Below are positions 4,449 to 49,292 of a stretch of DNA of 49,292 nt, one piece after another. Numbering within the stretch: the stretch's first letter is position 1; each line of letters begins with the position of its first letter. Source of the stretch: Nitrospira japonica (GTDB taxonomy: Bacteria > Nitrospirota > Thermodesulfovibrionia > Thermodesulfovibrionales > SM23-35); the NCBI GenBank assembly GCA_020725385.1, contig DYFC01000016.1:1-49292 (forward strand), read 5' to 3'. Both the position numbers and the translations under genes were made by a program. The notes below the pieces were generated by a model that had not been told where the DNA came from, ran no database searches, and saw only the letters and a list, made by a program, of their open reading frames with translations.

Positions 4449-6590
4449 ATGTTTAAGCGTAAGTTTATAGTTTTGGTTACAGCCATAATAGCGTTTCTTT
4501 TCCTTGCCAATTCTTATGTAATTGCAGGGGATCTTTACAAAATACAATCAAAAATAAAATCCCAAAAAGCAGGCTGGGTTGCAGGGGAAACATCTATTTC
4601 AAAGCTGCCACTAAAGGACAGGCAGAAACGACTCGGACTTTATTTTCCAGAAAAAGCGCCTGACGATATGATGATAGCAGCCAATATATCATCACTAATT
4701 AAAACCCAGGTTGTAATTCCATCATCTCTTGACTGGCGAAATAATGGTGGCAATTTTGTTACACCTGTGAGAAATCAGGGCAATTGTGGAAGCTGCTGGG
4801 CATTTGCAACAGCAGGAGCCCTCGAATCAGCAACATTAATTGCAAGCAATACTCCAGGTCTTGACTTAAATCTTGCAGAGCAGATTCTTGTTTCATGTAG
4901 CGGTGCCGGTGATTGTGGTGGCGGATATATAGACTCTGCTTCAGACTTTATTCAATCTATAGGTCTTCCTCCTGAAACATGTTATCCTTATACTGCTACG
5001 AACGGTTATTGTGGAAGTGCATGTTTAAACTGGGAATTAAACACATTCAAAATAAATAACTGGCAATGGATTGCTACACTATATCCTACAGTTGAAACAC
5101 TTAAGGCTGCTCTTAACGCTTATGGCCCGCTTGTTACAACCATGAATGTATATTATGACTTTTATTATTACAAAAGTGGTATTTACAGATATGTTTCAGG
5201 TGGTTATCAAGGAGGGCATGGTATTCTGCTCGTCGGTTATGATGATGCAGGTCAATATTTTATTGCAAAAAATAGCTGGGGCACTGGTTGGGGTGAAGCA
5301 GGATTTTTTAAGATTGCTTATTCTGAAATCTCGAGTGTCGTAAATTTTGGAAGATGGACAATAGCATATACAGCTTTGCCAGATACCACTGAATCATCTA
5401 CAACTGTTGTTTCGCCAAACGGTGGAGAAACCCTATCCGCAGGCAGCTCAAAGACAATCACATGGATATATACCGGTGACCCCGGATATTTAAAGATTGA
5501 ACTTTTAAAAGGTTCTTCAGTAGTAAGTACCATAGCTTCTATGGCTAATAAAGGTGTTAATGGTTCTGGCTCGTATAATTGGACAATACCTGTTTCAATC
5601 ACCACAGGGTCCGATTATAGAATAAAAATAACAAGCAATTCAAATAGTTCTGTTAGTGATATAAGCGATGATTATTTTACAATCAATGGTCCATATGTAA
5701 AGATAACCTCACCCAATGGTGGTGAAACATGGACAGCAGGTTCTTATAAAACAATCACATGGACATATACAGGAGAGCCCGGGTATTTGAAGATTGAATT
5801 GCTTAAAGGAACTTCTGTTGTAAGCACAATCTCTTCATATGCATATAAGGGAAGCAGTGGTTCCGGTTCATATAACTGGACAGTTCCTTCCAATATAACT
5901 TCAGGAACTGACTATAAAATAAGAATTACAGGAACTTCAAATCCATCAATGACAGATATGAGTGATAATTGTTTTACTATTGTTGGGCCTTCTGTAACTA
6001 TAACCACACCCAATGGTGGTGAAACATGGACAGCAGGTTCTTATAAAACAATCACATGGACATATACCGGTGACCCAGGATATTTAAAGATTGAATTACT
6101 TAAAGGAACTTCTGTTGTAAGCACAATCTCTTCATATGCATATAAGGGAGGCAGTGGTTCTGGCTCATATAACTGGACAGTTCCTTCTAATCTTTCCTCT
6201 GGTTCTGACTATAAGATTAGGATAACAAGCACATCAAATGCAACAATTTCTGACACAAGTGATAATACTTTCTCAATAGCAGGACCTCCACCTCCTTCTG
6301 TTATAGTAACCTCGCCAAATGGCGGAGAGACATGGAAAATCTGGACATATAAATATATAACATGGAAATATACTGGTAATCCGGGTTATTTGAAGATCGA
6401 ACTTGTTAAAGGTAACACGGTTGTTAAAATTCTAAAAACATCTGTTTATGTTGGTTCAAACGGGACAGGTTCTTCATATATCTCAATGCCAAGTGTAACA
6501 CCGGGTTCGGATTATAAAATAAAAATAACAAGCACATCCAATGCATCAATAACAGATACAAGCGATAATTTCTTTACAATCACAAATTAA
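4449..6590 (+). CDS. Secreted papain-family (C1A) cysteine peptidase with four C-terminal Ser/Thr-rich Ig-like repeats
   Basis: Signal peptide; LDWR; QGNCGSCWAF (catalytic Cys), GGHGILLVGY (His), KNSWG (Asn); four ~99-aa SPNGGETW repeats. Confidence 0.93.
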   Translation: MFKRKFIVLVTAIIAFLFLANSYVIAGDLYKIQSKIKSQKAGWVAGETSISKLPLKDRQKRLGLYFPEKAPDDMMIAANISSLIKTQVVIPSSLDWRNNGGNFVTPVRNQGNCGSCWAFATAGALESATLIASNTPGLDLNLAEQILVSCSGAGDCGGGYIDSASDFIQSIGLPPETCYPYTATNGYCGSACLNWELNTFKINNWQWIATLYPTVETLKAALNAYGPLVTTMNVYYDFYYYKSGIYRYVSGGYQGGHGILLVGYDDAGQYFIAKNSWGTGWGEAGFFKIAYSEISSVVNFGRWTIAYTALPDTTESSTTVVSPNGGETLSAGSSKTITWIYTGDPGYLKIELLKGSSVVSTIASMANKGVNGSGSYNWTIPVSITTGSDYRIKITSNSNSSVSDISDDYFTINGPYVKITSPNGGETWTAGSYKTITWTYTGEPGYLKIELLKGTSVVSTISSYAYKGSSGSGSYNWTVPSNITSGTDYKIRITGTSNPSMTDMSDNCFTIVGPSVTITTPNGGETWTAGSYKTITWTYTGDPGYLKIELLKGTSVVSTISSYAYKGGSGSGSYNWTVPSNLSSGSDYKIRITSTSNATISDTSDNTFSIAGPPPPSVIVTSPNGGETWKIWTYKYITWKYTGNPGYLKIELVKGNTVVKILKTSVYVGSNGTGSSYISMPSVTPGSDYKIKITSTSNASITDTSDNFFTITN
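5400..6587 (+). repeat. Intragenic tandem domain repeats, about 297 bp period, 4 copies
   Basis: Near-identical DNA starting CACCCAATGGTGGTGAAACATGGACAGCAGG at 5710 and 6007; more diverged copies near 5410 and 6310. Confidence 0.9.
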
Positions 6591-20845: not shown

Positions 20846-23800
20846 TCAATGAGATTTTTGTTCGTCTATATATTGTTCTGTTTTTTTGTTTTGATCTCTT
20901 ATTATCTCTTTAATTTTTTCAATATTCAATGAAGGAGAAGATGAATTCCCGGTCTCGCCGTAAGGTGCGGGTTTGTTTTTGTTTTGTGTTGCTTTACCAA
21001 CACCGGTACTGTAAACAGAATTCGCCCATGAGCCGCCACAAATCTGATTTGGGTTGCCAGAACACTTCATATCACAATTGTTTGCTGTTCCTGATTTTCC
21101 GTAACTATTTCCGCAAAAACACCATGAACTACACTGGGTACCTGCGTAAGCAAAACCTTTTTCTATGCAAATCGATATACACATCTCTGTTGTCATTTTT
21201 GAGTCATTGAGAACAAATTCCGAAATATCCCGGCCTCCTGTTCCGTAAGGATCTCCCTGGTCCCTATAACAGCCAAGATATTTGTATCTATCGGTCCTGG
21301 GAATTTGTTTTTCTTGAGAAATTGTACCAATAGAAGATTTATTAATATAATCTTCAACAATTTTAATATGGCTTGCTTTTGCATCTGTCGGTAAGCATTC
21401 ATAACTTGCTTTGAATTTTGCTAATGCCTCCTGCAAACGATTCTGCTTTTGTAATATAGCTCCTTCATTCCATTTTTGAGCACAGAGATTAATCTCATTT
21501 ATCCTGTTTTCTACTTTTACAATATGATCTTCAAGTGCAACGTTTGGCCATATCTTTACACTTTCTCTGTATTTATTCAGAGCTTCCTGTAATTTGCCCT
21601 GGTTCTGAAGCACACCTCCTTCGTCTATTAGTTTCTTCGCATTTGCCTTTGCTGCCTCCATCTTTCTGACATAGTCTTGTCTCATAGTATCAGGCCAGAT
21701 TTTTATACTCTCCCTGCATTTTGACAAAGCTTCTTCCATCTTTTTTTGGTTATAGAAATTCGTACATTCAGACCACAACCTATCTGCTGTTTGTGCCCTG
21801 TTTTGTATATCAGCTATCCTGTCTTCAAGTTCCTTGATATGGCTTTCAAGCTTTGTATCAGGCAGGTATTTCAGACTTTCCTTATATTTTGGAACTGCAT
21901 CTGTCAGTTTTCCTTGTTTTTCGAGCGAAATGCCTTTGTTTCTAAGCATGTTTGCAGTTTCTATATTATTCTGCTGTTCCTGCATCATCTTATACGCTTT
22001 GCTTTGGAGTTCGACATAATGTGTTCGCTCCGGGTCTGTCATACTCCAGTAGTTCCTTTCATCAATAAGCCCTTCTTTCAAGGATTCATATGCTCCTTTG
22101 TAATCACCGGCGCTGAATCTTTCTTCACCTTTTCTGAGTACTCCCCTCTTTTTTCCCTTAATAGCTTCCATTTTTGCAGTCCACTGCTCTATCTGCTGTA
22201 ACTTCTGAGCATCCACTGGCTGAAGTTTCATTGTCTGCTGAATATTCTTTATAATTTCTAATGCATTACTGAAATTTTTCTCATCGTTAGCCTTCTGTAC
22301 TTCGTAAAACCTGTCTCTGACCAGGGTGTTATACTTTGTTATCTGATTTCCAATGTAATGTTGCACTTCCCAAACCGGTTGATATTTACCGTATTTATTG
22401 AAAATCTGTGTAAAAGACTTCTGGGCTGCATCGAATTGCGCCTGATCTGTAAGATCTTTGATATTCTTAATCTCTCTAAGTATATACTGTCTTTCCTTTA
22501 TTAATTGAGCTGCAAGATTTGACGCTTCAATGTTTTTCGGGTCAAGCTGTTCTGCCTCTTCTGCAGCTACAATCGCTTCATCAAGCTTCCCCTGTTTTGC
22601 AAATTCTTTGGATTTTGCAAGTTTCTCCGATGCCTCTTTTCTCTTGTTTGAATTTTTCATTTCTTCCTGAGAAATTGTGATATTGACGCTACGGGAAACA
22701 CTACCTATCTCTGCCTTTATGCCTTCAATCTCTTTTGTTACGGTAACACTGGCAGTATAGGTGCCGGTGAGACTGCATTTGAAAGTCAAATCCTGTGTTA
22801 TGTCATTCATAAGGGTACATCCTTGCGGGAAAACTGTCCATTTATAATTCACGCCGTCCAATTTGGGCAAGACCTCCGCTCTCATAAGGATGTCATAATC
22901 AACGGCAAATTCATAATCTACTTCAACATTACCGCATGATCGTGCACCACCGGACCGGGTATCGCATTTCCATATTACAGGTTTGGACTGGCGGTATCTG
23001 GGTTCGGATATTGTTACAGTATAAGGTGAAGCCGTATACTCATCTGATATTGCTCCACCAATTGGGGTTCTGTAGTAAGGAACTTTCGGCGCAACAAGAA
23101 GTTTGACAGGTTTTGCATCTTTTGGTATGAACCCGATTTTTCCAGCGTTAGCCTCATACTGTTTTCTTTTTGAGAATTCAGGCTCAGACCATTCATAATC
23201 AATCAGCTTTGAATCGATATCAGGGTCAGTTTTCAGGGTTGCACTTATCTCCTGACCGACCTTTCCCCTTCCCTTGTCAGGATCAAAAAAGAGCATGAAT
23301 TTAGGCGGAACAACGTTCACTTCATACTGCGGTGTTTCAAAGCTTTCTGTTTTGTCTTTTTCAACTATTGCCCATATCTTAACTTTGCCGTTGTCTCCCA
23401 TACTGTTGAACAGGGCAGTTGTCGGACCTTCACCTGAAGGAGGGTCAAACTGGATATTTGGCGAAGATTGCCATGTAACAGTAATTCCTGAAGACCCTGT
23501 TTTCGGACGGCACCTTGTTATGGATTTTGTCTTTCCTTTCTCCAGAGCAGGACAACTATAGCAACCGTTCCAATCCTCTTCGTTCGGGTCGTACGCCTTT
23601 GCACATTTCAATCTCTTCATTTCGTCCTCGAATTTCTTTAATTCAGAAGATGATGCTTTATCGGTGCCCGGAATTTTTGCGATTAATGTGTGCTTTGTCC
23701 CGTATACAACTTGTTTAGGCAGTCCTTCAATAGTTACCTCTATACTCTCAACCTTCAGAGTTATCTCACCGTTTGCTTTCTTCCCTTCACTATCGAACAC

Positions 23801-26800
23801 TGTAACAGATATAACATAATCGCCCTTTTTCTGTGATACAAACTGAACGTTTGCACCACTTCCTGAAACATTTTCGCTCCATTTGTAAGTATAGGGCGAC
23901 TTGCCTCCGGAGGCTACTGCTAATATAGTTGCAATATTGCCGGGTTTTAGGGTTATCCTGTTGGTGCTTAGCTCTACAGTCAATCCGTCTTCTTTGTCCG
24001 GATCAACAATATCAAGGCAATAACTCTGGTATTTAACAGGTGGCTCAACTTTTATAGGGTAAGGTCTCGGCAGGCCATATTTACTTGCCGTGTCTTCTAT
24101 TTTCTGTAGTCTCTGCTCTATTATACCTTCTTGCAGTGAATGAATAACCCGCGGCATCTCGGTCTCTATTTTTTTAATCCGGTCCTGCTGTTTGTTGTGG
24201 AGGTTTTTTGGTTCTTTTATACATTCGTCAAATTCACCGCAATATTTTGGACATGCCCCGCCTGTACTACATTGCCTGCACCGCACTTTTTCATCTGTAA
24301 GTCTGAAGAGGGCCTCCCGCAGTTTCCCGAATGCCTCTTCATCAGCTTTCCTGAGAGAATCAATATAGGGTTTATAACCCTGTATCCATTCCATCATCTC
24401 CTTCTCAATTTTTTCAAGACCCTTATTGATTGCTTCCAGAGTGCTCTCAATATTCTTGCTGTCTCCACTTAATAGTTTTTTCTTAAGTTCAATAAGTTTT
24501 CGCCAGTCTTTTTCTTTTTCTATTTTTTCCTTCTCTATTTTTTCTTTTTCAAGCTGTTTCTTTTCGGGTTTTTTTCCTTCAGTGTCTTTTTTGTCAGGGT
24601 TACAGGCTCTCTGGGTCTCTGGTTTTTCTTTTTCAATACAGCCCTCAGGTGTTTTTTTGATTAACTTGCGCGTCTGTATTTTTTTAATTTTGTCACATTC
24701 ACCCCAGTCAGTGTATTGATAGGTGCATTCTGAAATTTTCAAATTTTTAAGATATTCTTTGTATTGAATTAGCCTTTCATTAATTGCTTGCACTGTATCA
24801 GCTTCACAGGTATCAATACTCCTCTCTTTGCAATCATCAAAGAGATGCTCAATTTCAAAACCAAGCTGTGCAAGCTTCTTAAGGTGTTCAAGTTCCTCTT
24901 TGCTCTTCGGGTTATGTCCTAAGGCATCAGAAAGATCTGAGTCAATTTTCCGGCCCCTGTTTCTATGTGCAGGAAGGGCAGCCTTTGCCTTATCGAGATC
25001 ACTCACTATATCAAGTGTTAGCCTCGGTGCACAATTCTTTCTTCCTCCTATAATCATCTTTAAAGGAGGATTTATCATCTTCTGCCAGTCAACTCTGTAT
25101 TCCTCGGTCCATAGTTGTATAATCTGATCCTGCATCCTCTTAATCTGACTGTAGGCATCATAATATTTCTTATAAACAAATACACCATAGTAGTCCTTGT
25201 TTATCTGAGACTGTACTTCCTTTTTTATTGCATCCATCATGCCATTATTCAGTCCTCTCAGGTCAGAAAGATCGTATCCGGCAAGATTTAGATCAGATTC
25301 AAGCTTTTCTAAATCTTTTACAAGTTTTTCCAAATCCTTAGGTGGTGTTGCAGACGCCTCAAGAAGATAAAGCAAGGATTTCCACATCTGCCTTTCAACC
25401 TGACTCTCCATCTGGGAAATCATCTCTTCCCTTTTTTGTGCAAGCTTTTGACCTGCAAGATTGGTAAATGCAGGAGCATTGTTCTTGTTTTCAAGAATCA
25501 GAACAGCGGCAAGCAGGTCTTCGTTGTGTGAAAAATATTTTCTTAATTTAGCATATTTCGCCTTTTTGCCAGATAAATCCATGCCATCAAGGCCGAGTTT
25601 CTTTCCTATGTTTGTTTCCCCGGCATCTTGCAATGTTTCATCGCCTTTGTCCACAAAATCACTGCCGTATCCATAGCTTTTTGGACTTCTCGGGATGAGA
25701 GTCAGCCAATACCGGAATTCAGGCAATTCATCTCCCGATATAAGGTTTTCACCCTTCATGAAGAAGTCGGCAAAATTGTCTGCCCGCTGCTGCAGATCCG
25801 GTGAATATTTATATTCTAAGATATCACCGTATTTGGAACTGGTTTTAATACCAATAACATGCCCTGTTTTAGGGTCAAAATTTATCTTGCTTCGCATCTT
25901 ATCGAGATATGAAAGAAATTCCTTGTCTCTCATTAATACATCAAAACGCTGAAGTTTTTCACCCAGTCCCCAGAATGCACCTATAGTGGGAAAATAATAA
26001 AACGCAAATGATTTTATGGCAGGCCCTGTATCTCCTGTCTGGTATGCCTGCAGTATGCCCTCGGCAACTGAAAGGCTCGGGAAGTCACCTGTGGCTTTTA
26101 TCTTTAAAATAGCACCCGCTGCTTTAACAGCACCTTTTGCATGGGTGTCCTCATTCATATAAGCATCGTATACACTAATGGCCTGGTCTGCAAAGTCAAG
26201 GGATTTTAAAAGTTTGCTCCCCTCAATGGTATTGGACCAGTCTTCATTAAAGTCTTTTATTTTTTTGTGTATCTTCGCAAAAGTCGGCAGACTTTCTCCC
26301 ATGTTCTGGTAATCTTTTTTGAGCCTGTCATATCCTCTGGCAAGTGATGGATATTTTTTCCGCAAATCTTCTATGAATTTACTTACTTTCTCCTCTGTCC
26401 ACTTCATCTGCTCTCTGAGATAAATGCGAAGATCCCGTGCATCATCCGGTGAAAAAATATACTCGATAATCCCTTTGTTTATCTGGTAGTTTTCCTGCCT
26501 TAATGCTTCTATAAGGTCATCCATTGTCTGTTTAACAACATCAGCGCTCCATTTGTCACCCTGCCTGAGTTTCTCTGAAAGCCATATAATGTCTTTTATC
26601 CCGCCCTCGGGGTAATCACCGACATGATGTTTATAGGTCTCAAGTTCCTCATGCATCTGTTCGAGCATATCGTCCAAATTCCTGTTTCTTCTACTTTCAT
26701 CTTTTACTGAGGCAATCTCCCTCAATCTCAGTGCAAGTGCTACTTCTGCGTTCTTGACAATTGACTTCTTTGAGCGCACAAGCAGTTCATTTATAGCTCT

Positions 26801-28027
26801 ATCAGAAGCTTCTTTATCTCCACCGCTTATTTCCGCTAATTTTAGTTTGTCTTTGTATTTTTCAAGAACCTTTGCCATCTCAATAGCAGCATCCCTTGCC
26901 TGTTTTGCCTTTGTCAGTTCCACAGCAAATTCACCAAGCATATGGTCATTGTCATCAAAGGGATCCCACTCACCTCTATAGGCTGCTGTTGCCTTTTGAT
27001 TGTAGAGATAGCTCCTCTCCACATACTTCATTATCTTTACCAGTTTATCGATTCCGCTGTAATTGCCCTTTTCTATGTCTGCTATTAGATGCCTTGACAT
27101 CTCAAGGCTCAACATAGGTTCTGTTTGCATAGTAACTTTTGGAGGGTCAAAATCCCGGGCCTCCATAAATGCTCTCCACCAGAAAAGCTGGCTCCCGGGC
27201 ATCTCTTTGGTCACTATATCAACAACCTTAATTCTGCCACCCTGCTTCCTTATTTTTTTTGCTTCATCAGGAGCAATTAATCTGCCGTCATCGAGTTTCA
27301 GAAGAATCAATTTCCACTTGCCTCTTGAAAGCAGATCCATCTCCGCAAATGTCTTTCCCCATTCACCTATAAATACTTCTGATGATGCTTTACCGTGAGG
27401 AGTTATCAGTGCATCCATATTTATCATTATTCTCTCATCAGAGACACCGGTTATCTTTTGAAGATTCTCTTTAAACATATCCCTCAGTTTCATGTTAAGA
27501 TGGTCGTCTGTCGACAGACTGCTTAAGTCAATATCTTTATCGAATTGAAGGGTCTTTGTCTGCATCTTTACCCATGTTCCGATATCCATCTCTCCGTATA
27601 TCGTTCCTATTGCTTCAGGATTATCGTTATAAAATTGTATCAGGGTATCTTTTAAAACCTTTTGAACAATCAATGCCCTGCCCATCATCAACGCACGCTC
27701 AATACCAATATAGTCGGTATTCCAGTTAGGCAATTTCCCTCTCAGGGATTGATATGCCTGTGTACCTTTTTTCATGGTCAGCAGTTCATTGAAAAATGAG
27801 CCTGTCTCCGCTATAAGCCTGCTTTCATCCTGGCCAAGCTTTACAGTTTCATTATCTTTCGCCCTCATCATCTTGTTTGTAATTTCAGGCATATGAGATT
27901 TGTACCTGTCAAGAAGGGCAATAAGCTTTTGTTCTTCCTCTGAAATGTTACCGGCTGCATAAAGAAAAGTATGGAGAGATAATAGGATAAAAAATACGCA
28001 AGAAAAAAGAGAAAAGTTTTTTTTCAT
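20846..28027 (-). CDS. Giant secreted multidomain protein (2393 aa): unknown N-terminal region, TSP1-like, PKD/Ig-like, TPR array, WSC domain
   Basis: Signal peptide; [11 protein letters not shown]...QTR...C...QRAC; [11 protein letters not shown]...SVTVFDSEG; TPR-like helices; YLGCYRD...MTTEMC..C..KGFAYAG.Q...CFCGN...C...[11 protein letters not shown]. Confidence 0.85.
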
Positions 28028-41321: not shown

Positions 41322-42111
41322 AGCTTTAATACCCGAAAGGGGAGAAGAAGTAATAAATATTGATATTGAACGCATATTTCCAGGGGAACAACAGCCGAGA
41401 AAAACTTTTAAAGATGAATCACTTAAAGAACTTGCTGCTTCAATCAAAGAAAAAGGTGTATTGCAGCCAATAATAGTATCGAGAGTAGGAGATGGTACAT
41501 TCAGATTAATCGCAGGCGAACGTAGATGCAGGGCTGCATTGCTTGCAGGACTTAAGAAAATTCCTGCTTTAATAAAGAATGTTGCTTCAAAAGATTCACT
41601 TGAAATTGCTCTCATAGAAAATATTCAACGTGAAGATTTAAATCCTGTTGAAACAGCAGAAGCTTTTAATAAACTGATTTCTGATTTCAATCTTACACAG
41701 GAAGAACTTTCAGAAAGAGTCGGAAAAGACAGGGCAACAATAGCAAATTATTTGAGATTACTTAAACTTCCCGATGAAGTAAAATCCCTAATGTATAACG
41801 GTTCTTTGAGCATAGGACATGCAAAGGCTATTCTTTCAATTGAGGGAAAAACAAATCAAATAGAGGCTGCACGAAAAATTGTTCAAAAGGGATTAAGCGT
41901 TAGGGAGGCCGAAGCAATTACAAAAAAAGTAATAAAGACCCGTAAAAAAGAAGTTATAAAAGACCCCCAGATAAATTTGCTCGAAGATAAATTAATAAAG
42001 AACCTGGGGACTAAAGTTAGGATTATTTCTCATGGTAAGAAAGGGAAAATAGAGATTGAATATTATTCCTATGAAGAACTTGAAAGGCTACTTGATATAT
42101 TATTGGGTTAG
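41293..42111 (+). CDS. parB: Chromosome partitioning protein ParB/Spo0J
   Basis: ALGKGLEAL, QPRK, IAGERR, ENIQREDL, HTH (GKDRATIANYLRLL). Confidence 0.97.
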   Translation: MKTALGKGLEALIPERGEEVINIDIERIFPGEQQPRKTFKDESLKELAASIKEKGVLQPIIVSRVGDGTFRLIAGERRCRAALLAGLKKIPALIKNVASKDSLEIALIENIQREDLNPVETAEAFNKLISDFNLTQEELSERVGKDRATIANYLRLLKLPDEVKSLMYNGSLSIGHAKAILSIEGKTNQIEAARKIVQKGLSVREAEAITKKVIKTRKKEVIKDPQINLLEDKLIKNLGTKVRIISHGKKGKIEIEYYSYEELERLLDILLG

Positions 42112-42119
42112 GAGGATAT

Positions 42120-43067
42120 ATGCAGGAAGAGACAACTCTTTATGATGTAACTATAATTGGCGGCGGTCCGGCAGGTCTTACAGCAGGACAATATGCTTCA
42201 AGGGCAAAACTAAAGACAATAATTCTTGATAAATCCAAAACAGCAGGCGCGCTTGCATATTCAAGCAAGATAGAAAATTATCCCGGGCTTACATCACCCT
42301 TGCCTGGCAAAGATTTGCTTGATATTATGCGTCAACAGGCGATTAAGTTCGGTTCTGAATATATCGAGACACAAGTTGTAGGAGTCAACCTGTCAGGTGA
42401 GATAAAAGAAATCATTACAATGGATAAAACATATCAATCCAAAACAGTAATAATTGCAACAGGTTCTATGGGAAGAAAAGCAACAATTAAAGGTGAAGCT
42501 GAGTTTCTGGGCAGGGGTGTTAGTTATTGCGCAATATGTGATGCTGCTTTCTATAAAGGCATGACTGTTTGTGTAATAGGAAATTCAGAAGAAGCAGTTA
42601 AAGAAGCAGGCGTTCTTACAAAATTTGCCGATACCGTATATCTTATTTCTCCAACATCAAAGCTTAGTGTAGATGAACATCCTGCTCTTTCAGAGCCAAA
42701 AATAAAGATTCTCACAGGATATATTGTAACATCTATCGAAGGCAGCGATTCTGTTGAAAAAATTAAAATGCTTGACCCTGATAAAAAAGAATTTGAACTT
42801 CCTTTATCAGGAGTTTTTGTGTATCTTCATGGCAATAAACCTGTTGTTGATTTTCTATATGGAGCTATCGAAACAGGCGAGGATGGTTGTATACCTGTCA
42901 ATAATATGATGGAAACATCAATACCGGGAGTTTTTGCAGCAGGAGATGTGACATGTACAGAAGTAAGACAGGTTGTTATCGCTGCCTCACAGGGCTGCCT
43001 TGCAGCACTTTCAGCAGAAAAGTTTATTTATAAAAGAACAAGATTAAAAATGGATTGGGGCAAATAA
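42120..43067 (+). CDS. trxB: Flavin thioredoxin reductase, probably NADPH-independent (FFTR/DTR type)
   Basis: GGGPAG, GVSYCAICD, FAAGD; NADPH-binding motifs absent; C-terminal DW. Confidence 0.85.
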   Translation: MQEETTLYDVTIIGGGPAGLTAGQYASRAKLKTIILDKSKTAGALAYSSKIENYPGLTSPLPGKDLLDIMRQQAIKFGSEYIETQVVGVNLSGEIKEIITMDKTYQSKTVIIATGSMGRKATIKGEAEFLGRGVSYCAICDAAFYKGMTVCVIGNSEEAVKEAGVLTKFADTVYLISPTSKLSVDEHPALSEPKIKILTGYIVTSIEGSDSVEKIKMLDPDKKEFELPLSGVFVYLHGNKPVVDFLYGAIETGEDGCIPVNNMMETSIPGVFAAGDVTCTEVRQVVIAASQGCLAALSAEKFIYKRTRLKMDWGK

Positions 43068-43141
43068 ACAAAATTAAAATGCAATATTTTATATTTCAAT
43101 ATAACCCCATCTTGATGAAAAAGTCATGCTTTTTGAAGTAC

Positions 43142-43861
43142 TTAATGACTTAATTTAATTTTTACCAAATCCTTTAAACATTGCAGAGAATCTTTGAAAG
43201 GTTTGACTTTAGAATCAGGCGAATTTAACCATTTGATCGGCACTTCTTTTATTTTGTAACCTTCTTTTTTTGCTATATAAAGAATTTCAATATCGTAAGC
43301 AAACCGATCAATTACTGCTTTTCTAAAGAGGCTCCTTCCAATTTCTCCTCTAAATAGCTTAAATCCACATTGCGTATCCAAAAAATCAATACTTGCTATT
43401 GTTCTTACAATTTTATTAAATGTTCTACCCATAAATTCACGCCACCATGGTTGTCTTATTACTATTTCACTTTCTTTTAGAGCCCTTGAACCAATAGCAA
43501 TATCATATTCTTTTTCACAATAAACTATGAGCTTTTCAACTTCTTCAATCGGAGTGGATAAATCAGCGTCAGAAATTAGAATAAAATCACCTTTTGAGAT
43601 GTTTACACCATATTTAAGTGCAAATCCCTTCCCTTTGTTAATATCATACCCGGTAACATGTAACGTCTTGATGCTATTTTTAGCCTGCATAAGAACTTCT
43701 AATGTGTTGTCATTGCTTCCATCATTAACAACAATTATTTCAAAATCTCTAAAAATTTTGCCGCAGTATTCATTAATCTTAAAAAGTGTAGAAAGAATAC
43801 GTTTAGATTCGTTATAAGCTGGAATTATTATCGAGATAGAGTTCTGTTTTTTGTTAAGCAT
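43142..43861 (-). CDS. GT2 dolichyl/polyprenyl-phosphate beta-glucosyltransferase (ALG5/DPG-synthase-like)
   Basis: IIPAYNE, VNDGS, NKGKG, DADLSTP, AIGSR, DTQCGFKLF, FAYDIEIL, EVPIKW; ATG at 43861 preferred over TTG at 43876. Confidence 0.88.
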   Translation of the reverse strand: MLNKKQNSISIIIPAYNESKRILSTLFKINEYCGKIFRDFEIIVVNDGSNDNTLEVLMQAKNSIKTLHVTGYDINKGKGFALKYGVNISKGDFILISDADLSTPIEEVEKLIVYCEKEYDIAIGSRALKESEIVIRQPWWREFMGRTFNKIVRTIASIDFLDTQCGFKLFRGEIGRSLFRKAVIDRFAYDIEILYIAKKEGYKIKEVPIKWLNSPDSKVKPFKDSLQCLKDLVKIKLSH

Positions 43862-43998
43862 TTGAATATTAAACAATATTTTTTTAAAAAAGTCTATTTA
43901 TGTCCTTATTACTACTTAATATTCTGGAATAAGATTTCGATTTACCTGAAAGTAATGAGTCGTAATTCTGCCCTAACCCTTGCATTTATTCGATTATT

Positions 43999-45225
43999 TT
44001 AAAGAAAGAACAATCTATTTCTAATAAGATAAAAAAATATAGCTGAAATTATAAAAAACCATAATACTGTAACATATTCAACAAAATTATTATCACTTTT
44101 TTTAAATAAAATAAATAAGGAGTATGGAATTATGTAATATCTTTGTTCTATAAAGGAAGAAGGAATTAAATATACAAGTGTTAAAGGATACAGAAAATAA
44201 TAATACTTTTTTAAAAGACAGGTTACTCTAATGGAGAGAATGGAATATGCAATTGGCAAATAGAATAGAGCTTTAAAAATATCAGATTGGAAGTAACTTA
44301 ATAGTATATTTCTCAAAAAAAACAAGCCATAATTATATGGGTGTAATTTAAATGTAATAAAATATATTGGAAACATTAGAAAAATTAATAGTAAAAATTT
44401 TTTATCTGTTTTAATCATATTTTTAATCCTTTGAAAATTTTGGATATTTAAAGGTAGAAAAAGAAAGAAAAAAATAAAAAGCATAAAGAATATATTGCTA
44501 CTTGAGAGAGATAATTTATGCATTTCTTTATCTCCTATTGCTACTCCTTTGTTGAGAATCACAAAGATAATAAAAAGAATAATAACAATAATAAAAACAA
44601 AAGAATCTTTAATAAAAATCTTCAATTTATCGATTATAAGTTTAGAATTGTAATTTTGAGAATATATAATTGAAAGTGCAAATATTATCCAAATAATATT
44701 ATTCTGTCTTATAGTTATACTTAATAATCCAATAATACCTGAAATATAATAATTTTTTCGAATGGCCAGAAGAAGTGTTAATAAAACAAAAGATAAGGAA
44801 ACCATATCTGTATAACATAAAAAGAAGAATGGGAACGATATTGGTAAAAAAGAAAACTGTAATAATTTATATTCGGAGATTGAATGGTTGATATTTTTTA
44901 AAAGGAAGAAAAAAAATATGATTGAGGTTAGAGAAAGTATGAAAGAAAATAATCTAAAAGTCGCTATATTGGATGTATGAAAAAGATAAGATAATCCGGC
45001 GATAAAAATATGATAACCCGGCAACATTGTTAGTTCGGGGATTAAAGTGAAATCATGACATAAGAATTTTACTATTTGATTAAAGTGAACATCTTCATCA
45101 GCTATTAAGTTGATATTTTTTATCAATAGAAAACAAAAAACAAAGACCGTTAAAATAAAAATTAATCCAAAATACAGATTTTTATAAATAACTAAATTAT
45201 TAGTAAGTTTTTTGAAGTGATCCAT
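43999..45225 (-). CDS. ALG10/DIE2-like GT-C membrane glucosyltransferase
   Basis: Multi-TM; ordered motifs DEDVHFNQ, LTMLPGY, FLCYTD, RQNNIIW, NKGVAIGDKEMH, HPY, EQRYYIIPY. Confidence 0.78.
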   Translation of the reverse strand: MDHFKKLTNNLVIYKNLYFGLIFILTVFVFCFLLIKNINLIADEDVHFNQIVKFLCHDFTLIPELTMLPGYHIFIAGLSYLFHTSNIATFRLFSFILSLTSIIFFFFLLKNINHSISEYKLLQFSFLPISFPFFFLCYTDMVSLSFVLLTLLLAIRKNYYISGIIGLLSITIRQNNIIWIIFALSIIYSQNYNSKLIIDKLKIFIKDSFVFIIVIILFIIFVILNKGVAIGDKEMHKLSLSSSNIFFMLFIFFFLFLPLNIQNFQRIKNMIKTDKKFLLLIFLMFPIYFITFKLHPYNYGLFFLRNILLSYFQSDIFKALFYLPIAYSILSIRVTCLLKKYYYFLYPLTLVYLIPSSFIEQRYYIIPYSLFILFKKSDNNFVEYVTVLWFFIISAIFFYLIRNRLFFL

Positions 45226-45508
45226 TTTAAAAACAAATATCTATTTAAAATAGTTTTTATCCGATCATTGCTTATTATTTGTATCACCCAAATTGTAAAA
45301 ATCTATATAAAATTAAAACAAGCCTGGTTTTAATATAAAATTCCTCTCAGTAAAATATATTGCAACATCATATTATAATGAATTAACATTTATTGAAATG
45401 TTATTAAAACGGTTATGTAAAACCTGTTACTCTATTTGAGAAACTTTCACTAAAAGATGTAAAGATTTGCAAATCAAATCATATTTAAAATAATGAATTA
45501 GAATTTAC

Positions 45509-47053
45509 TCATTTAGCTTTTTGTTTTAATAAAATATTTATCATAGGTCCAATAACAAGAAAAACTATCCAGCCTAAAGAATGAAGATAACGTACTGTTA
45601 CTCCCTCACAAAAAGTACATGAGACAAGAACTATTAAAAATGATATATAGAAAACAAAGAAATTGAGTATTCTGTAATCTTTGCCATATATGAATATATT
45701 TAGAAATGCAAAAAAAGGTAAACAAAGTAAAAATAAATACCAGAACCATATTTTCATATGATATTTAACAATTAATGTTCTGAGAAAAGGCAATTTTTCT
45801 CCATCAAGATTGAAATTATCTTTTAAGGCTTTTAACATATATTCTGGTAGTGGTCTGTCTCCCTCGTCATTTAATAAACTACGCTTTAAATATGATAAAT
45901 TCCAAAAATCTTTAAATGTTTTAAAAATAACTGAAATAACCCCGAAGGGGTCTCTCTTTAAAGCATTCAATGCAGTTTTTAGGGCTAAATTATCAGCCTT
46001 AATAGAATCAGGAAAAGCTTCGTTCAAACGGGCAATAATTCCATCAGATTGCCAGTGATGAAATACCCGATTATAATGATTTTTTGGATCATAATTTAAA
46101 TCTTTGAAAATTCTTTCTGCTACTTCAGGTATGGGAAAATCTTCTTGTTCAACTACTGGTAGAAAAGCTACCATCATGATGGTTCCACTTTTGTATTGAT
46201 AAGCAGGAGGATTTTTAGATAAATATCCATTAAGATTTTTATATCCGAGGTGAAAGATAAATGTTGATAAAACAGAAACAAGAATATGAAAAGCAATCAT
46301 ACTGATAAGCCATCTTTTTTTAAAAGTATCTTCTGAAAAAATATACTTCTTAAAAATCATTGGATAGAAACTAAATTGAGTTCTTTGAAAGAATAAAGCA
46401 AGAATAGGAAGCATTAAAGTGTTAATTAAAACAATAGGAAGATAGCTTAACCTTAAACTAATTAAACATGTGCCTATAATTTGTATAATTACTAACAATA
46501 ATAAACGAGGTTTTCTAAAATAAAGAAATATTATAAGTATGTATATTGTGAATAAGAACAAAGAAAATGCCTCTGTCATTACAAAACGCTCATACATAAG
46601 CTGTAAAGGTTCTAAAGTACAAATTAAGGCTGATAGAAAAGCTCTTCTAAAATTAAATGAGAAAAAAGTAATAAGAATGTAAGAAATAATAATAGCATTA
46701 AAACAACTCGTTGCAATCTGAATTGATATTAAAGTAGTAAGTGAATGAGATGCAATGGCTGTATATTTGATAATAAACCCATAAATAAATGACCTATCCG
46801 GAGGAATCCAATTATTAATAGCGGTAGATAAATAGCTCCATGAATCACCTAAAAAAAACCTTGGTATTGGATCTATGCAAAAAATAATAAATTTAATGAA
46901 AATAATTGTAAGTAATAAAAATAACCAATATAATTGATTAGATTTATTATTTAATTTTGATAAATCTTTAATTCCCAATTTTAACATTTTTAAAAATTCA
47001 AAAATTCGCTTAATAATATAACATAAAATAAAAAGCTTTATTATTTGTCTCAT
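45509..47053 (-). CDS. Multi-pass membrane protein, GT-C-like glycosyltransferase (start uncertain; 46987 possible)
   Basis: GDSWSY and PDRSFIYG in the first loop, ERFVMTEAF, late VRYLH, many TM segments. Confidence 0.62.
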   Translation of the reverse strand: MRQIIKLFILCYIIKRIFEFLKMLKLGIKDLSKLNNKSNQLYWLFLLLTIIFIKFIIFCIDPIPRFFLGDSWSYLSTAINNWIPPDRSFIYGFIIKYTAIASHSLTTLISIQIATSCFNAIIISYILITFFSFNFRRAFLSALICTLEPLQLMYERFVMTEAFSLFLFTIYILIIFLYFRKPRLLLLVIIQIIGTCLISLRLSYLPIVLINTLMLPILALFFQRTQFSFYPMIFKKYIFSEDTFKKRWLISMIAFHILVSVLSTFIFHLGYKNLNGYLSKNPPAYQYKSGTIMMVAFLPVVEQEDFPIPEVAERIFKDLNYDPKNHYNRVFHHWQSDGIIARLNEAFPDSIKADNLALKTALNALKRDPFGVISVIFKTFKDFWNLSYLKRSLLNDEGDRPLPEYMLKALKDNFNLDGEKLPFLRTLIVKYHMKIWFWYLFLLCLPFFAFLNIFIYGKDYRILNFFVFYISFLIVLVSCTFCEGVTVRYLHSLGWIVFLVIGPMINILLKQKAK

Positions 47054-47285
47054 CAGATTTTTAGGTCATATTCGAATTTCTTATTTGTTTTGGATAAATT
47101 ATAATATCGAAAAAAAATTAATTGTGTTTTTATTCAATTTGATGTAGAGTCATAAACGATATTATATTTTCAATGTAATCTATTAGATGTTTTTGAGACT
47201 AAAATAATAAATCATGATATAAAGCGGAACTAAAACATATTAATGTATTGATGTCAGAAATGAATAAAAATACTTAAAAAATATT

Positions 47286-49292
47286 ATGGGAAATAATATT
47301 TTTTCAAATATCTTGTTGCAATATACTTTTCTTATACTTACTCTTGCCAGTATAATCCTTTTTTTCAAAAGTATTTACAATAAAATTAAAACAAAACAAA
47401 TTTTATTAAGCCTCATTTGGATTACAATACTTGTTTTTTACTTAGCCATATTCATTATTAAATATCTTTTTCCCACAGAAGGTGTTGTCGGATGGGATGA
47501 TGCATCTAATATGCTCCGGGGGATAAACATTGCAGATGACATTTTAAATGGCCGATTTTCAGAATTTTGGCGCGACACAAATATGCAAACAATATGGGGG
47601 CCGGGTTATGCATGGCTTTTTGCATGGCTTTATATTGTTCTGGGGAAAATAAAGCTTGCTGGTTCTTTTCTATCTGTTTTGTCTTTTGTTATGAGTACTT
47701 TTGTTATATATCAAATAGGTCTTAAAATGAACCAGAAAAAAGGCTGGCTGGTAGGCAGTATTGCCGTCATATTTATGATTACTACGCCATATGCCATAAA
47801 ATTGTCAGCGATAGCCATGATAGAGCCTGTTCTATTATTTCTGCTTCCTTTTGTAATACTTGTAAGAATTAATAATGATGAAAACAACTCAAATATTAAT
47901 TCCATTATTTTTTCCCTTCTGGTTGCATTTATTTTTTTAACAAAATATAACTATGGTTTCTTGCTCATTGTAGCTAATTTGATTGCTGATTTTATTTTTT
48001 TTATTCGATCTACCGATAATAATAAAATCAAATTAACATCGAAAATCTTAATTTATAATTATGTTCCTTTATTTCTAATTATAATTCTTTGGTTTCTTTG
48101 GGAAACCAATTCAAAAATTGAAGGTTTTCTTTTTTTTATGAAAAATGTTCCAAGAATTGAGTCAGCCCTTTTCAGTGAATACAGGCTGTTTTATTATCCA
48201 AAGCTATTTTTATCCGAATATTCTTTTTTAGGAAAATTCTCACCAATAATCATACCATTTTTCATTATTGGTTTATTGAATAGTTATCGCAAGCCTTTTT
48301 TAAGAATGTCTTTATTTTTTATCATCTCTTTCATTGCTGCAACAATACACCCTTTGAAAGATACAAGATATTTTATTCCTTTTTTGCCATTTCTTTGGTT
48401 GCTTGTTTCTCTTGGTATTGTAATTTTTACAGAATGGATATCAAAATTATTAAAAGAAAATATATTTTCTAAAATATTCTATTTCACGACTATAACTTTT
48501 CTCATTTTGATTTTACCTCTTTATCAATTTAGCCGTCTTGATACCAAAGCCCGTTATTTATCAAGCGGGACATTATCCCCTAATTATTTTATGGCTAAGT
48601 CAATAAAAGAAATCTTAACAAAGATAAAATATGAAGCTAATGAAAGGAAAAAAATTATAATAGTTGGCACATTTGCCGAAATAAGTCCTGCTCTAATTAA
48701 ATTACATTTACATGGAGATATAAAGGAAAATACAAATTATGACATTCTCATTGATACATTTGAGAAAGAAGCGTCTAATTACGAGGAATTCTTAACCTCA
48801 TGGATAGATTCTCATCCTGAATATAGTATTGCTACTATACGCTTATCAGACAACTCACCATTTTTTGGACAAGACTATGAAAAATTTAATCTCTGGAAAA
48901 GAGAATACATTGATATTATTAATAAAAACTATAAAAAGTACGGCCTTGACCTCTACCATGAAAAGTATTTTTCTGAATATGGAATTGAATTTAAAATTTA
49001 TAGACAGAAACAGAAAGATATGCTTTCAGCTATAACATACAACTTTGAGCAGAATAAAAAAGGATGGAGTACAGACAGAATTAATATTAATGTTGGTATA
49101 ACAGACTTAAAAAAACATAAAGGCAGATTTAGCTTAAGGATAGCAGGTAGGGGCGAAACAGGGCAATGGAGCTTTGCGAGGTCTGAAAAGAATATGATTA
49201 TACCGGGGAAACTCTACAAATTTTCTGGCTGGATGCTTATTGATTCTATCAGTAGTGATACATCTAATTTCAAGTGTGAATTCTGGTCAGGG
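47286..49292 (+). CDS. GT-C (ArnT/PMT-like) membrane glycosyltransferase with C-terminal CBM-like domain; 3'-truncated by the window edge, absent from the ORF track
   Basis: Translated by hand: open from ATG 47286 (MGNNIFSN...) to the window end; GWDDA, WGPGY, AMIEP, TKYNYG, KDTRYFIPFLP, then YNFEQ...GW...HKGRFSLRI...PGKLYKFSGW. Confidence 0.85.
   Translation, partial: MGNNIFSNILLQYTFLILTLASIILFFKSIYNKIKTKQILLSLIWITILVFYLAIFIIKYLFPTEGVVGWDDASNMLRGINIADDILNGRFSEFWRDTNMQTIWGPGYAWLFAWLYIVLGKIKLAGSFLSVLSFVMSTFVIYQIGLKMNQKKGWLVGSIAVIFMITTPYAIKLSAIAMIEPVLLFLLPFVILVRINNDENNSNINSIIFSLLVAFIFLTKYNYGFLLIVANLIADFIFFIRSTDNNKIKLTSKILIYNYVPLFLIIILWFLWETNSKIEGFLFFMKNVPRIESALFSEYRLFYYPKLFLSEYSFLGKFSPIIIPFFIIGLLNSYRKPFLRMSLFFIISFIAATIHPLKDTRYFIPFLPFLWLLVSLGIVIFTEWISKLLKENIFSKIFYFTTITFLILILPLYQFSRLDTKARYLSSGTLSPNYFMAKSIKEILTKIKYEANERKKIIIVGTFAEISPALIKLHLHGDIKENTNYDILIDTFEKEASNYEEFLTSWIDSHPEYSIATIRLSDNSPFFGQDYEKFNLWKREYIDIINKNYKKYGLDLYHEKYFSEYGIEFKIYRQKQKDMLSAITYNFEQNKKGWSTDRININVGITDLKKHKGRFSLRIAGRGETGQWSFARSEKNMIIPGKLYKFSGWMLIDSISSDTSNFKCEFWSG

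Follow-up and report, generated by a model that had tools for sequence, protein, structure and literature searches.

The last glucose of the eukaryotic N-glycan precursor is added by ALG10, also called DIE2, which is the dolichyl phosphate glucose (Dol-P-Glc):Glc2Man9GlcNAc2-PP-Dol alpha-1,2-glucosyltransferase of glycosyltransferase family 59 (GT59), and Dol-P-Glc is provided by ALG5, a synthase with a transmembrane (TM) segment. Here we report that a member of the ALG10 family is encoded in the bacterium Nitrospira japonica, within a stretch of 49,292 nucleotides (GenBank assembly GCA_020725385.1, contig DYFC01000016.1, positions 1 to 49,292 of the forward strand) which is called the window below and corresponds to a whole contig (C9) of an assembly of 2.46 Mb, with 71 contigs, 96.6% completeness and 34.7% GC. 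The gene codes for a membrane protein of 408 amino acids (aa), and the gene of a 244-aa glycosyltransferase of family 2 (GT2) lies downstream of it in the same orientation. We consider it probable that the two proteins constitute a two-step lipid-phosphate-sugar module, made of a GT2 synthase and an ALG10-like transferase of the GT-C class, which would decorate an extracytoplasmic glycan.

In bacteria, the closest described systems also combine a donor synthase with a membrane transferase. The Gtr modules of Shigella and Salmonella phages, which glucosylate the O-antigen, consist of the flippase GtrA, the undecaprenyl phosphate glucose (Und-P-Glc) synthase GtrB, which carries C-terminal TM helices, and the serotype-specific GT-C transferase GtrC. 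In the CsbB/YfhO and GtlA/GtlB systems of teichoic acid glycosylation, a C55-P-sugar synthase is associated with a membrane transferase of the YfhO family, and the known YfhO systems use sugars other than glucose. ArnC and ArnT are, respectively, the synthase of undecaprenyl phosphate 4-deoxy-4-formamido-L-arabinose (Und-P-L-Ara4FN) and the GT-C transferase of aminoarabinose to lipid A. Finally, the PMT and PMT_2 proteins (GT39-like) are protein O-mannosyltransferases found with a polyprenyl-P-mannose synthase, and PMTs bear an Asp-Glu pair in loop 1.

ALG10 has so far been considered a eukaryotic protein. In a passage of PMC4973528 the lumenal ALG transferases are stated to “appear to be unique to eukaryotes”, BLASTp having found no prokaryotic homologues and hidden Markov models (HMMs) only distant, PMT-like ones; in the relevant part of a 2024 preprint (bioRxiv 10.1101/2024.10.30.621208) ALG10 is placed at the point where the Eukaryota arose, and in excerpts of four further sources (PMC6801728, PMC8476585, PMC13503287 and bioRxiv 10.1101/209106) it is named as a eukaryotic enzyme only. 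Our search of the papers of one literature library returned no description of prokaryotic ALG10 homologues and no characterised member. The initial annotation of the window, made from the sequence without database searches, had implied a greater novelty than we found, since the databases hold hundreds of prokaryotic homologues, some of them named automatically; what stands is that no characterised member was met in the literature. The gene described here belongs to a large prokaryotic branch, annotated in databases yet unstudied, of a family that has been treated as eukaryote-specific.

The two genes and the DNA between them are arranged as follows:

43999..45225, minus strand: ALG10/DIE2-like GT-C membrane glycosyltransferase, 408 aa, open reading frame (ORF) with an ATG start
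43877..43998, no strand: spacer of 122 nt between the 408-aa and 244-aa genes
43142..43876, minus strand: TM-less GT2 of the polyprenyl-phosphate sugar synthase type (Dpm1/GtrB/ArnC-like), 244-aa ORF, candidate donor synthase

The assignment of the 408-aa protein to the DIE2/ALG10 family, based on sequence comparison, is solid. DIE2_ALG10 (PF04922) is the sole Pfam family that matches at E <= 1, with E 2.7e-35 and a score of 122.8 bits against a curated cut-off of 27, over profile positions 5-168 and 200-390, and NCBIfam gave zero matches. The seven ordered motifs singled out by the initial annotation are all present, once each and in that order, starting at residues 43, 65, 135, 173, 225, 295 and 360, and in an alignment of the protein with 26 homologues (27 prokaryotic sequences in total) D43, E44, R91, P128, D140, R173, W179, N298, R362 and Y363 are invariant. 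When this alignment was compared by hhalign with 20 insect ALG10 sequences, named so by NCBI or UniRef and the only eukaryotes in the comparison, the two profiles matched with probability 99.95 and E 1.4e-37 over 371 columns, at 24% identity, and seven aligned blocks (DE..H, T.PG.Y, YTD, RQ.N..W, N.G...GD...H, HPY and.RY..IPY) coincided with invariant or near-invariant columns of insect ALG10, so that the eukaryotic motifs listed in the initial annotation all find their counterpart in insects. A generic GT-C identity (PMT_2, PMT or GT87) was rejected, as none of these families matched in Pfam at E <= 1 and the hhalign match to the six PMT_2 proteins of the same genome was far weaker (probability 92, E 6.8e-7, over the N-terminal 160 columns). 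With the curated cut-off passed and no better match elsewhere, the family membership first proposed for the protein is upheld, and the protein is probably an active GT-C member of the DIE2/ALG10 (GT59-type) family.

The predicted structure is in line with this assignment. The AlphaFold model of the 408-aa protein has a predicted local distance difference test (pLDDT) of 93.9 and a predicted template modelling score (pTM) of 0.93. In a wide structural search against 48161 chains with VIA-align, the best 20 rows were all GT-C enzymes, with Z from 21.1 to 10.1, namely ALG12 (Z 21.1), AglB (19.4), Pmt4 (18.4), ArnT (18.4), Pmt1/2 (18.2), then STT3, PglB, ALG3, AftB, PIG-M, AftA and PIG-U (13.6 and 13.3), as well as ALG9, ALG6, DPY19, PimE, AftD and, lowest, EmbA/B at Z 10.1, and the first unrelated row had Z 8.6. 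Foldseek against the PDB gave nothing at E <= 0.001 (its top rows were GT-C, ALG12 being the best at 9.5e-3), and it is the VIA-align search that recovers the GT-C fold. A phmmer search of the PDB sequences with the 408-aa protein gave no match at E <= 10, and no ALG10 chain was found in the PDB by sequence, by Foldseek or by the wide structural search. The N-terminus contains lysines, followed by a helix at residues 15-35 and by the invariant D43-E44, a putative catalytic pair just past the first TM helix; from the positive-inside rule and the analogy with other GT-C enzymes we infer that it lies at the outer face of the membrane. As modelled, the protein would be a multi-pass membrane protein with acidic residues in the first predicted extracytoplasmic loop, consistent with a GT-C fold.

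As far as the GT2 is concerned, its start codon is TTG, with an ATG five codons further in, and it matches Pfam Glycos_transf_2 (PF00535) with E 6.6e-26. Its seven best PDB sequence matches, with E from 1.2e-17 to 7.4e-14, are ArnC, GtrB (sll0501) and the Pyrococcus dolichol-phosphate mannose synthase (DPMS), the best value by type being 1.2e-17 for ArnC, 1.5e-17 for GtrB and 3.8e-14 for DPMS. The GT2 is therefore of the polyprenyl-phosphate sugar synthase type, in agreement with the class of lipid-phosphate-sugar synthases to which it had initially been ascribed. In NCBIfam it is matched by ArnC, PgfS, PpgS and a haloarchaeal dolichyl-phosphate hexose transferase, with scores that fall well short of the equivalog cut-off in every case, and no hydrophobic segment of the 244-aa protein exceeds the TM threshold. 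Orthologues of the GT2 (E <= 1e-30) occur in 47 of 201 genomes of the phylum, with up to 58% identity, and in the GT2 tree the window protein nests among its phylum relatives, in a clade with a Shimodaira-Hasegawa-like approximate likelihood ratio test (SH-aLRT) support of 97; the GT2 is native to the phylum. In five relatives' loci no synteny between GT2 and TrxB was seen, and in two of the five the GT2 orthologue adjoins a gene of the YfhO family.

The association of the two genes was then considered in 58 loci with an ALG10-like gene, found by a single peptide pattern with one genome per species. A homologue of the window GT2 (phmmer E <= 1e-5) is contained in the DNA examined in 16 loci, and in seven it lies within 100 nt of the ALG10-like gene (L007, L010, where this happens twice, L014, L020, L036, L040 and L044). 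Since the genome of the window holds 11 GT2 matches at the same threshold in 2.46 Mb, about 3 of the 58 loci would be expected to contain one by chance. Strong GT2 orthologues (E <= 1e-40) are present in six loci, one from Elusimicrobia and five from Peribacteria. In five genomes, picked for having an adjacent GT2, the adjacent copy is in each case the genome's best match to the window GT2, and in Microbulbifer litoralis it is the sole match in 5.0 Mb, placed 86 nt upstream and co-oriented. Furthermore, ten long family members were tested, and in one of them, P0225 (659 aa), a GT2 domain whose nearest matches are again ArnC, GtrB and DPMS is naturally fused to a DIE2_ALG10 domain. The other nine have N-terminal extensions of about 140-370 residues with no Pfam match (P0054, P0071, P0073, P0219, P0271, P0291, P0294, P0313 and P0333), and P0054 and P0073 have a similar-looking soluble segment in common.

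The 104 immediate neighbours of the ALG10-like genes in the 58 loci include 17 PMT_2, 9 GT2 (two of them entered by hand), 4 DIE2_ALG10, 3 LPG_synthase_TM, 2 PMT and 2 GT87 genes in a Pfam tally. The surroundings of prokaryotic ALG10-like genes are thus made up in good part of lipid-sugar-dependent membrane transferases and donor synthases. The four further DIE2_ALG10 genes represent occasional duplication. Taken as genomic evidence, these associations support a functional coupling of the GT2 and ALG10-like families.

The prokaryotic ALG10-like subfamily is large, and its members are typically predicted to be of about 400 residues. A word-indexed search returned 59 clusters, all with PF04922, and those with a named source include Thioploca ingrica and metagenome-assembled genomes of Nanoarchaeota, Spirochaetes, Gammaproteobacteria and Moranbacteria; the JGI label on such clusters is “alpha-1,2-glucosyltransferase”. 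An exhaustive profile search of 1.84 billion representatives gave 3337 matches at E <= 0.001, 1952 at E <= 1e-10 and 892 at E <= 1e-30. The best 150 of these matches all score above 356 bits, compared with 103 bits for an insect ALG10 on the same profile, so that the prokaryote-type clade comprises at least 150 clusters at 50% identity. The word-indexed search with the prokaryotic alignment did not reach diverse eukaryotes, and a search seeded with P0076 had only insects among the best 120 of its 826 matches. The 58 loci are from Patescibacteria (Peribacteria, Moranbacteria and others), DPANN archaea, Gammaproteobacteria, Myxococcota, Omnitrophota, Chloroflexota, Elusimicrobia, Spirochaetes and Verrucomicrobiota, and among the carriers are the isolates Microbulbifer litoralis, Corallococcus praedator, Dyella dinghuensis, Uliginosibacterium flavum, Marinimicrobium and Luteimonas.

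At the level of genomes the occurrence is patchy. A whole-genome family search found the ALG10-like gene in one of the 201 genomes of the phylum, that of the window itself, in 6/201 genomes (over cut-off) of the class of a Peribacteria carrier, and in 22 of 151 genomes of the family of Microbulbifer litoralis (Gammaproteobacteria). Three genomes of this last family (G499, G443 and G479) have two separate copies. In a quick maximum likelihood tree of 70 rows, unrooted, with insects as the only eukaryotes and with four short loci rows dropped (L055, L057, L058 and L060), the 62 prokaryotic rows and the 8 insect rows form two groups, set apart with support 100 and by a long branch, most phylum labels cluster, and the sister of the window's protein is a metagenome protein with 61% identity. 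A few near-identical ALG10-like proteins appear under different phylum labels, such as L003 (Patescibacteria) and L004 (Gammaproteobacteria), with end branches of 0.04-0.06, and likewise L027 (Chthoniobacterales) and L037 (“delta proteobacterium”), with end branches of 0.10-0.19, which suggests that transfer was very recent or that some contigs were mis-binned or mislabelled.

The locus can now be compared with the systems introduced above. With eukaryotic ALG10 and ALG5 it shares the Pfam family, a near full-length alignment, the loop motifs, the GT-C fold and, likely, a GT2 partner. It differs in that the prokaryotic proteins have about 400 aa, compared with 430-500 aa in insects, with gaps at the extra loops of the latter, in that identity to insects is 24% with a long branch between the groups, and in that the prokaryotic genes are adjacent in the window and fused in P0225; unlike ALG5, the window GT2 is devoid of a TM segment, and neither an STT3 over cut-off nor an Alg6/8 match is present in this genome. 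The Gtr modules resemble it, in the reading proposed here, in having a GT2 synthase beside a GT-C enzyme that acts on a surface glycan in the periplasm, and the best PDB matches of the window GT2 include GtrB (sll0501, E 1.5e-17). However, the window transferase is of the ALG10 and not of the GtrC family, its GT2 lacks the C-terminal TM helices of GtrB, and in this genome there is no match to GtrA_DPMS_TM, so that the three Gtr components are not found together. Similarity to CsbB/YfhO and GtlA/GtlB consists in the GT2 orthologues located beside YfhO in two of the five relatives' loci and in this genome's own YfhO-then-GT2 pair on contig C71, whereas the partner in the window is ALG10-like and not YfhO; moreover, the organism encodes TonB, which suggests an outer membrane and not a teichoic acid wall. 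ArnC is the top match of the GT2 in both PDB and NCBIfam and ArnT is a strong structural match of its partner (Z 18.4), but the GT2 reaches 75.9 bits against an ArnC equivalog cut-off of 529 and the 408-aa protein has no ArnT-type Pfam match. Lastly, the N-terminal GT-C module is distantly homologous to that of PMT/PMT_2 proteins, which are the commonest neighbours of prokaryotic ALG10-like genes and of which one is present in the window, although the PMT_2 match (E 6.8e-7 over 160 columns) is to be set against 1.4e-37 over 371 columns for ALG10.

In the module that we propose, the TM-less GT2 would take a hexose from a nucleotide sugar and attach it to polyprenyl phosphate on the cytoplasmic side, the resulting lipid-phosphate-sugar would be flipped across the membrane, and the ALG10-like enzyme would move the sugar to an acceptor outside the cytoplasm by means of D43-E44, in the first periplasmic loop. 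The acceptor would most likely be a surface or periplasmic glycan, or its lipid-linked precursor. Both the direction of sugar flow and the topology are what we infer for the module, and the identification of the transferred sugar with glucose is put forward tentatively, its chances being somewhat below even.

Several results weigh against this picture. No STT3 over cut-off was found in the genome, nor was Alg6_Alg8, the latter being a weak blank as control genomes also gave nothing, so that the acceptor pathway of eukaryotic N-glycans is not evident here, and on this basis the enzyme cannot have the eukaryotic task of capping the precursor for an oligosaccharyltransferase. A flippase of the GtrA type (PF04138) was not found at E <= 0.01 in the whole genome, 96.6% complete, and the control search for this family was positive in 8 of 14 genomes. 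The label “alpha-1,2-glucosyl” is unsupported for the 408-aa protein, and no biochemical data on prokaryotic members were found. P0225 is a single metagenome gene call and could be an artefact of sequencing or calling. A scan of positions 42800-47500 for promoters and terminators gave 42 promoter-like sites (34.6 +/- 5.9 in shuffles) and two terminator-like sites, both inside the gene of a 514-aa protein upstream, with none in the 122-nt spacer, and does not settle co-transcription of the ALG10-like gene and the GT2. Lastly, 42 of the 58 loci have no GT2 homologue within the DNA examined, which means that adjacency is no rule of the family, and 46 of the 200 other genomes of the phylum hold a GT2 orthologue and show no ALG10-like gene, which implies that the GT2 serves, or also serves, other transferases.

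These last two counts are at the core of an unlikely alternative, according to which the ALG10-like enzyme is active and the nearness of the GT2 is incidental, the donor being supplied by another synthase and the GT2 feeding PMT_2 or YfhO. The different distribution of the two genes (47/201 against 1/201), the position of the GT2 among its phylum relatives (SH-aLRT 97), its ordinary GC content (30.5%, the ALG10-like gene having 22.4%) and the presence in this genome of 10 further GT2 matches and of six PMT_2 genes would all be accounted for in this way. It is more difficult to reconcile with the adjacency recurring in several phyla and with two different GT2 subfamilies, with the adjacent GT2 being the best match in 5/5 of the chosen genomes and the sole one in a genome of 5 Mb, and with the fusion P0225. 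The initial proposal of a donor-synthase plus transferase pair is retained for the two proteins working together, on the strength of recurrent adjacency and of one fusion. As for the product of the ALG10-like enzyme, direct glycosylation of proteins, in the style of PMT/GT39 or of bacterial PMT_2, instead of that of a glycan or lipid-linked oligosaccharide, is decidedly improbable. The resemblance of the N-terminal 160 columns to the genome's own PMT_2 proteins (probability 92, E 6.8e-7), the rank of Pmt4 (Z 18.4) and Pmt1/2 (18.2) among the structural matches, the 17 PMT_2 genes out of 104 neighbours and an invariant D43-E44 similar to the Asp-Glu pair of PMT loop 1 would favour it, but the match to ALG10 is far stronger and full-length, the 408-aa protein does not have the large soluble MIR-type loop of PMTs, and, in the passage of PMC4973528 that deals with them, the only characterised relatives, the eukaryotic ALG10 enzymes, act on a lipid-linked oligosaccharide.

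The protein might also be a catalytically dead GT-C fold with a scaffolding or transport role, such as that of PIG-U, whose chains match the model with Z 13.6 and 13.3, in the glycosylphosphatidylinositol (GPI) transamidase. This is very improbable, given that prokaryotes show little or no variation at the acidic pair of loop 1 and at nine further polar or aromatic positions, that these conserved residues align with invariant residues of insect ALG10, and that the gene is linked to a donor-synthase gene. Finally, the gene is in the last 6 kb of the contig, it is the sole one in the sample of its own phylum, and with 22.4% GC it falls below 99.98% of the 4002 genome windows of 1.2 kb, as could result from eukaryotic contamination or from a chimeric join at a low-GC contig end. 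We regard this as extremely improbable, because the frame is uninterrupted, the nearest relatives are prokaryotic (<=61% identity), the tree places the protein inside the prokaryotic clade with the insects apart (support 100), homologues are found in isolate genomes, and GC at third codon positions (GC3) is little different, 0.196 compared with about 0.23 in the neighbouring genes. Moreover, contigs of independent sequencing runs from different studies bridge all three junctions, TrxB to GT2 (run X3, 42886-43618), GT2 to the ALG10-like gene across the spacer (run X4, record 19, 43225-44264) and the ALG10-like gene to the next gene, that of the 514-aa protein (run X4, 44354-46027), so that the gene order is no assembly artefact of a single dataset.

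The finding is of value chiefly for understanding where the eukaryotic N-glycan pathway came from and as a tractable ALG10 model. ALG10 has close, full-length prokaryotic homologues that keep all the conserved loop motifs, so that for at least one step in the assembly of eukaryotic N-glycans the origin is now testable by phylogeny. The prokaryotic clade is large and deep, it has members in both Bacteria and DPANN Archaea and for the most part follows the phyla, in a tree that is unrooted and has only insects as eukaryotes; these features are compatible with a derivation of eukaryotic ALG10 from this clade, whose genes often adjoin that of a lipid-phosphate-sugar synthase or are even fused to it, a scenario that we hold to be rather unlikely. 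If true, the last glucosylation step of the N-glycan precursor, together with an ALG5-type donor supply, would have been inherited as a ready-made prokaryotic two-gene module, at odds with the published studies, in which the lumenal ALG transferases are all dated to the origin of eukaryotes. Since no solved ALG10 structure turned up in our PDB searches, the small bacterial orthologues may be suited to structural and biochemical work. The family also flags an uncharacterised activity of envelope glycosylation in bacteria of the Candidate Phyla Radiation (CPR), DPANN archaea, cultured Gammaproteobacteria and Myxococcota.

Directly to the left of the GT2 are the housekeeping genes birA, coaX, parA, parB and trxB (names from translations), and on the other side of the ALG10-like gene the window ends with two further genes:

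45509..47053, minus strand: multi-pass membrane protein of 514 aa without a Pfam family, ORF co-oriented upstream of the ALG10-like gene
47286..49292, plus strand: PMT_2-like GT-C protein with a C-terminal CBM_4_9 domain, at least 669 aa, divergent, running off the contig end

The 514-aa gene has a GC content of 26.4%, compared with the 30.5% of the GT2 and with 29.5-31.7% in the six other membrane genes of the PMT_2 family, and is found in one of the 201 genomes of the phylum. In the 408-aa protein L, I and F make up 46% of the residues; this composition and a GC3 close to that of the neighbours indicate that much of the GC drop of its gene is due to amino acid composition, and the claim of acquisition is based mainly on the phyletic pattern and not on GC. 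In the simplest reading, the ALG10-like gene and, probably with it, the 514-aa gene arrived later by acquisition, next to what is a native GT2. The horizontal acquisition considered in the initial annotation fits the ALG10-like gene (1/201; 22.4% GC) and not the pair, given the nativeness of the GT2 (47/201 and tree). Contigs of run X1 covering parB and trxB (41805-42753) differ from the window at 7-8 positions per about 450 nt and show zero differences over 43628-47500 (ALG10-like gene, 514-aa gene and start of the PMT_2-like gene), and a similar contrast was seen in run X4 (8 differences in 540 nt as opposed to 2-3 in 1040-1676 nt); compared with its flank the island may be of younger age, or strains may have swapped it recently. 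Contig cover was missing for parts of the stretch in runs X4 and X8.

The 514-aa protein has no match in Pfam or NCBIfam, and by hhalign its probability is 0.25 against the ALG10-like profile and 4.8 against PMT_2, neither of which is significant. Its nearest clusters in the Atlas are named RgtA/B/C/D-like or PMT, a lead only, and its AlphaFold model, obtained from a 3-sequence alignment, has a pLDDT of 43.5. A metagenome scan found one relative (L068:1397-3714), at a locus where two tandem paralogues are beside a divergent GT2 fragment; the paralogues share a conserved block right behind the first helix, a position compatible with a GT-C-like loop-1 site. As a lead, the 514-aa protein may be another lipid-sugar-dependent transferase. 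The divergent protein at the contig end, whose gene is 2 kb from the ALG10-like gene, matches CBM_4_9 with E 7.7e-6 and PMT_2 with 19.4 bits, below cut-off; its residues 1-560 match the six PMT_2 proteins by hhalign with probability 95.4 and E 1.7e-8 over 336 columns, and in the Atlas it falls among PMT_2/GT39 clusters. Its CBM_4_9 domain hints at a polysaccharide substrate for the island, which is a small, probably acquired group of membrane glycosyltransferase genes that likely alters the surface glycans of the organism. In total, the genome has six PMT_2, two YfhO and one Wzy_C gene, and further pairs of a GT2 with a membrane transferase are a GT2 with PMT_2 (C63:7565-9435) and the above-mentioned YfhO then GT2 (C71:457-2974).

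Two other proteins of the window carry domains that are best known from fungi. Kre9/KNH proteins are known mainly from the assembly of fungal cell-wall glucan, and WSC is a carbohydrate-binding domain typical of fungal wall sensors. A 713-aa protein (4449-6590, plus strand) combines a papain-family cysteine protease domain, Peptidase_C1 (E 5e-52), with three Kre9/KNH-like domains (E 2e-38), and a 2393-aa protein (20846-28027, minus strand) contains TPR repeats, a PKD domain and a C-terminal WSC domain (E 8e-18), in a region whose GC content, 0.39-0.42, is above that of the rest of the window.

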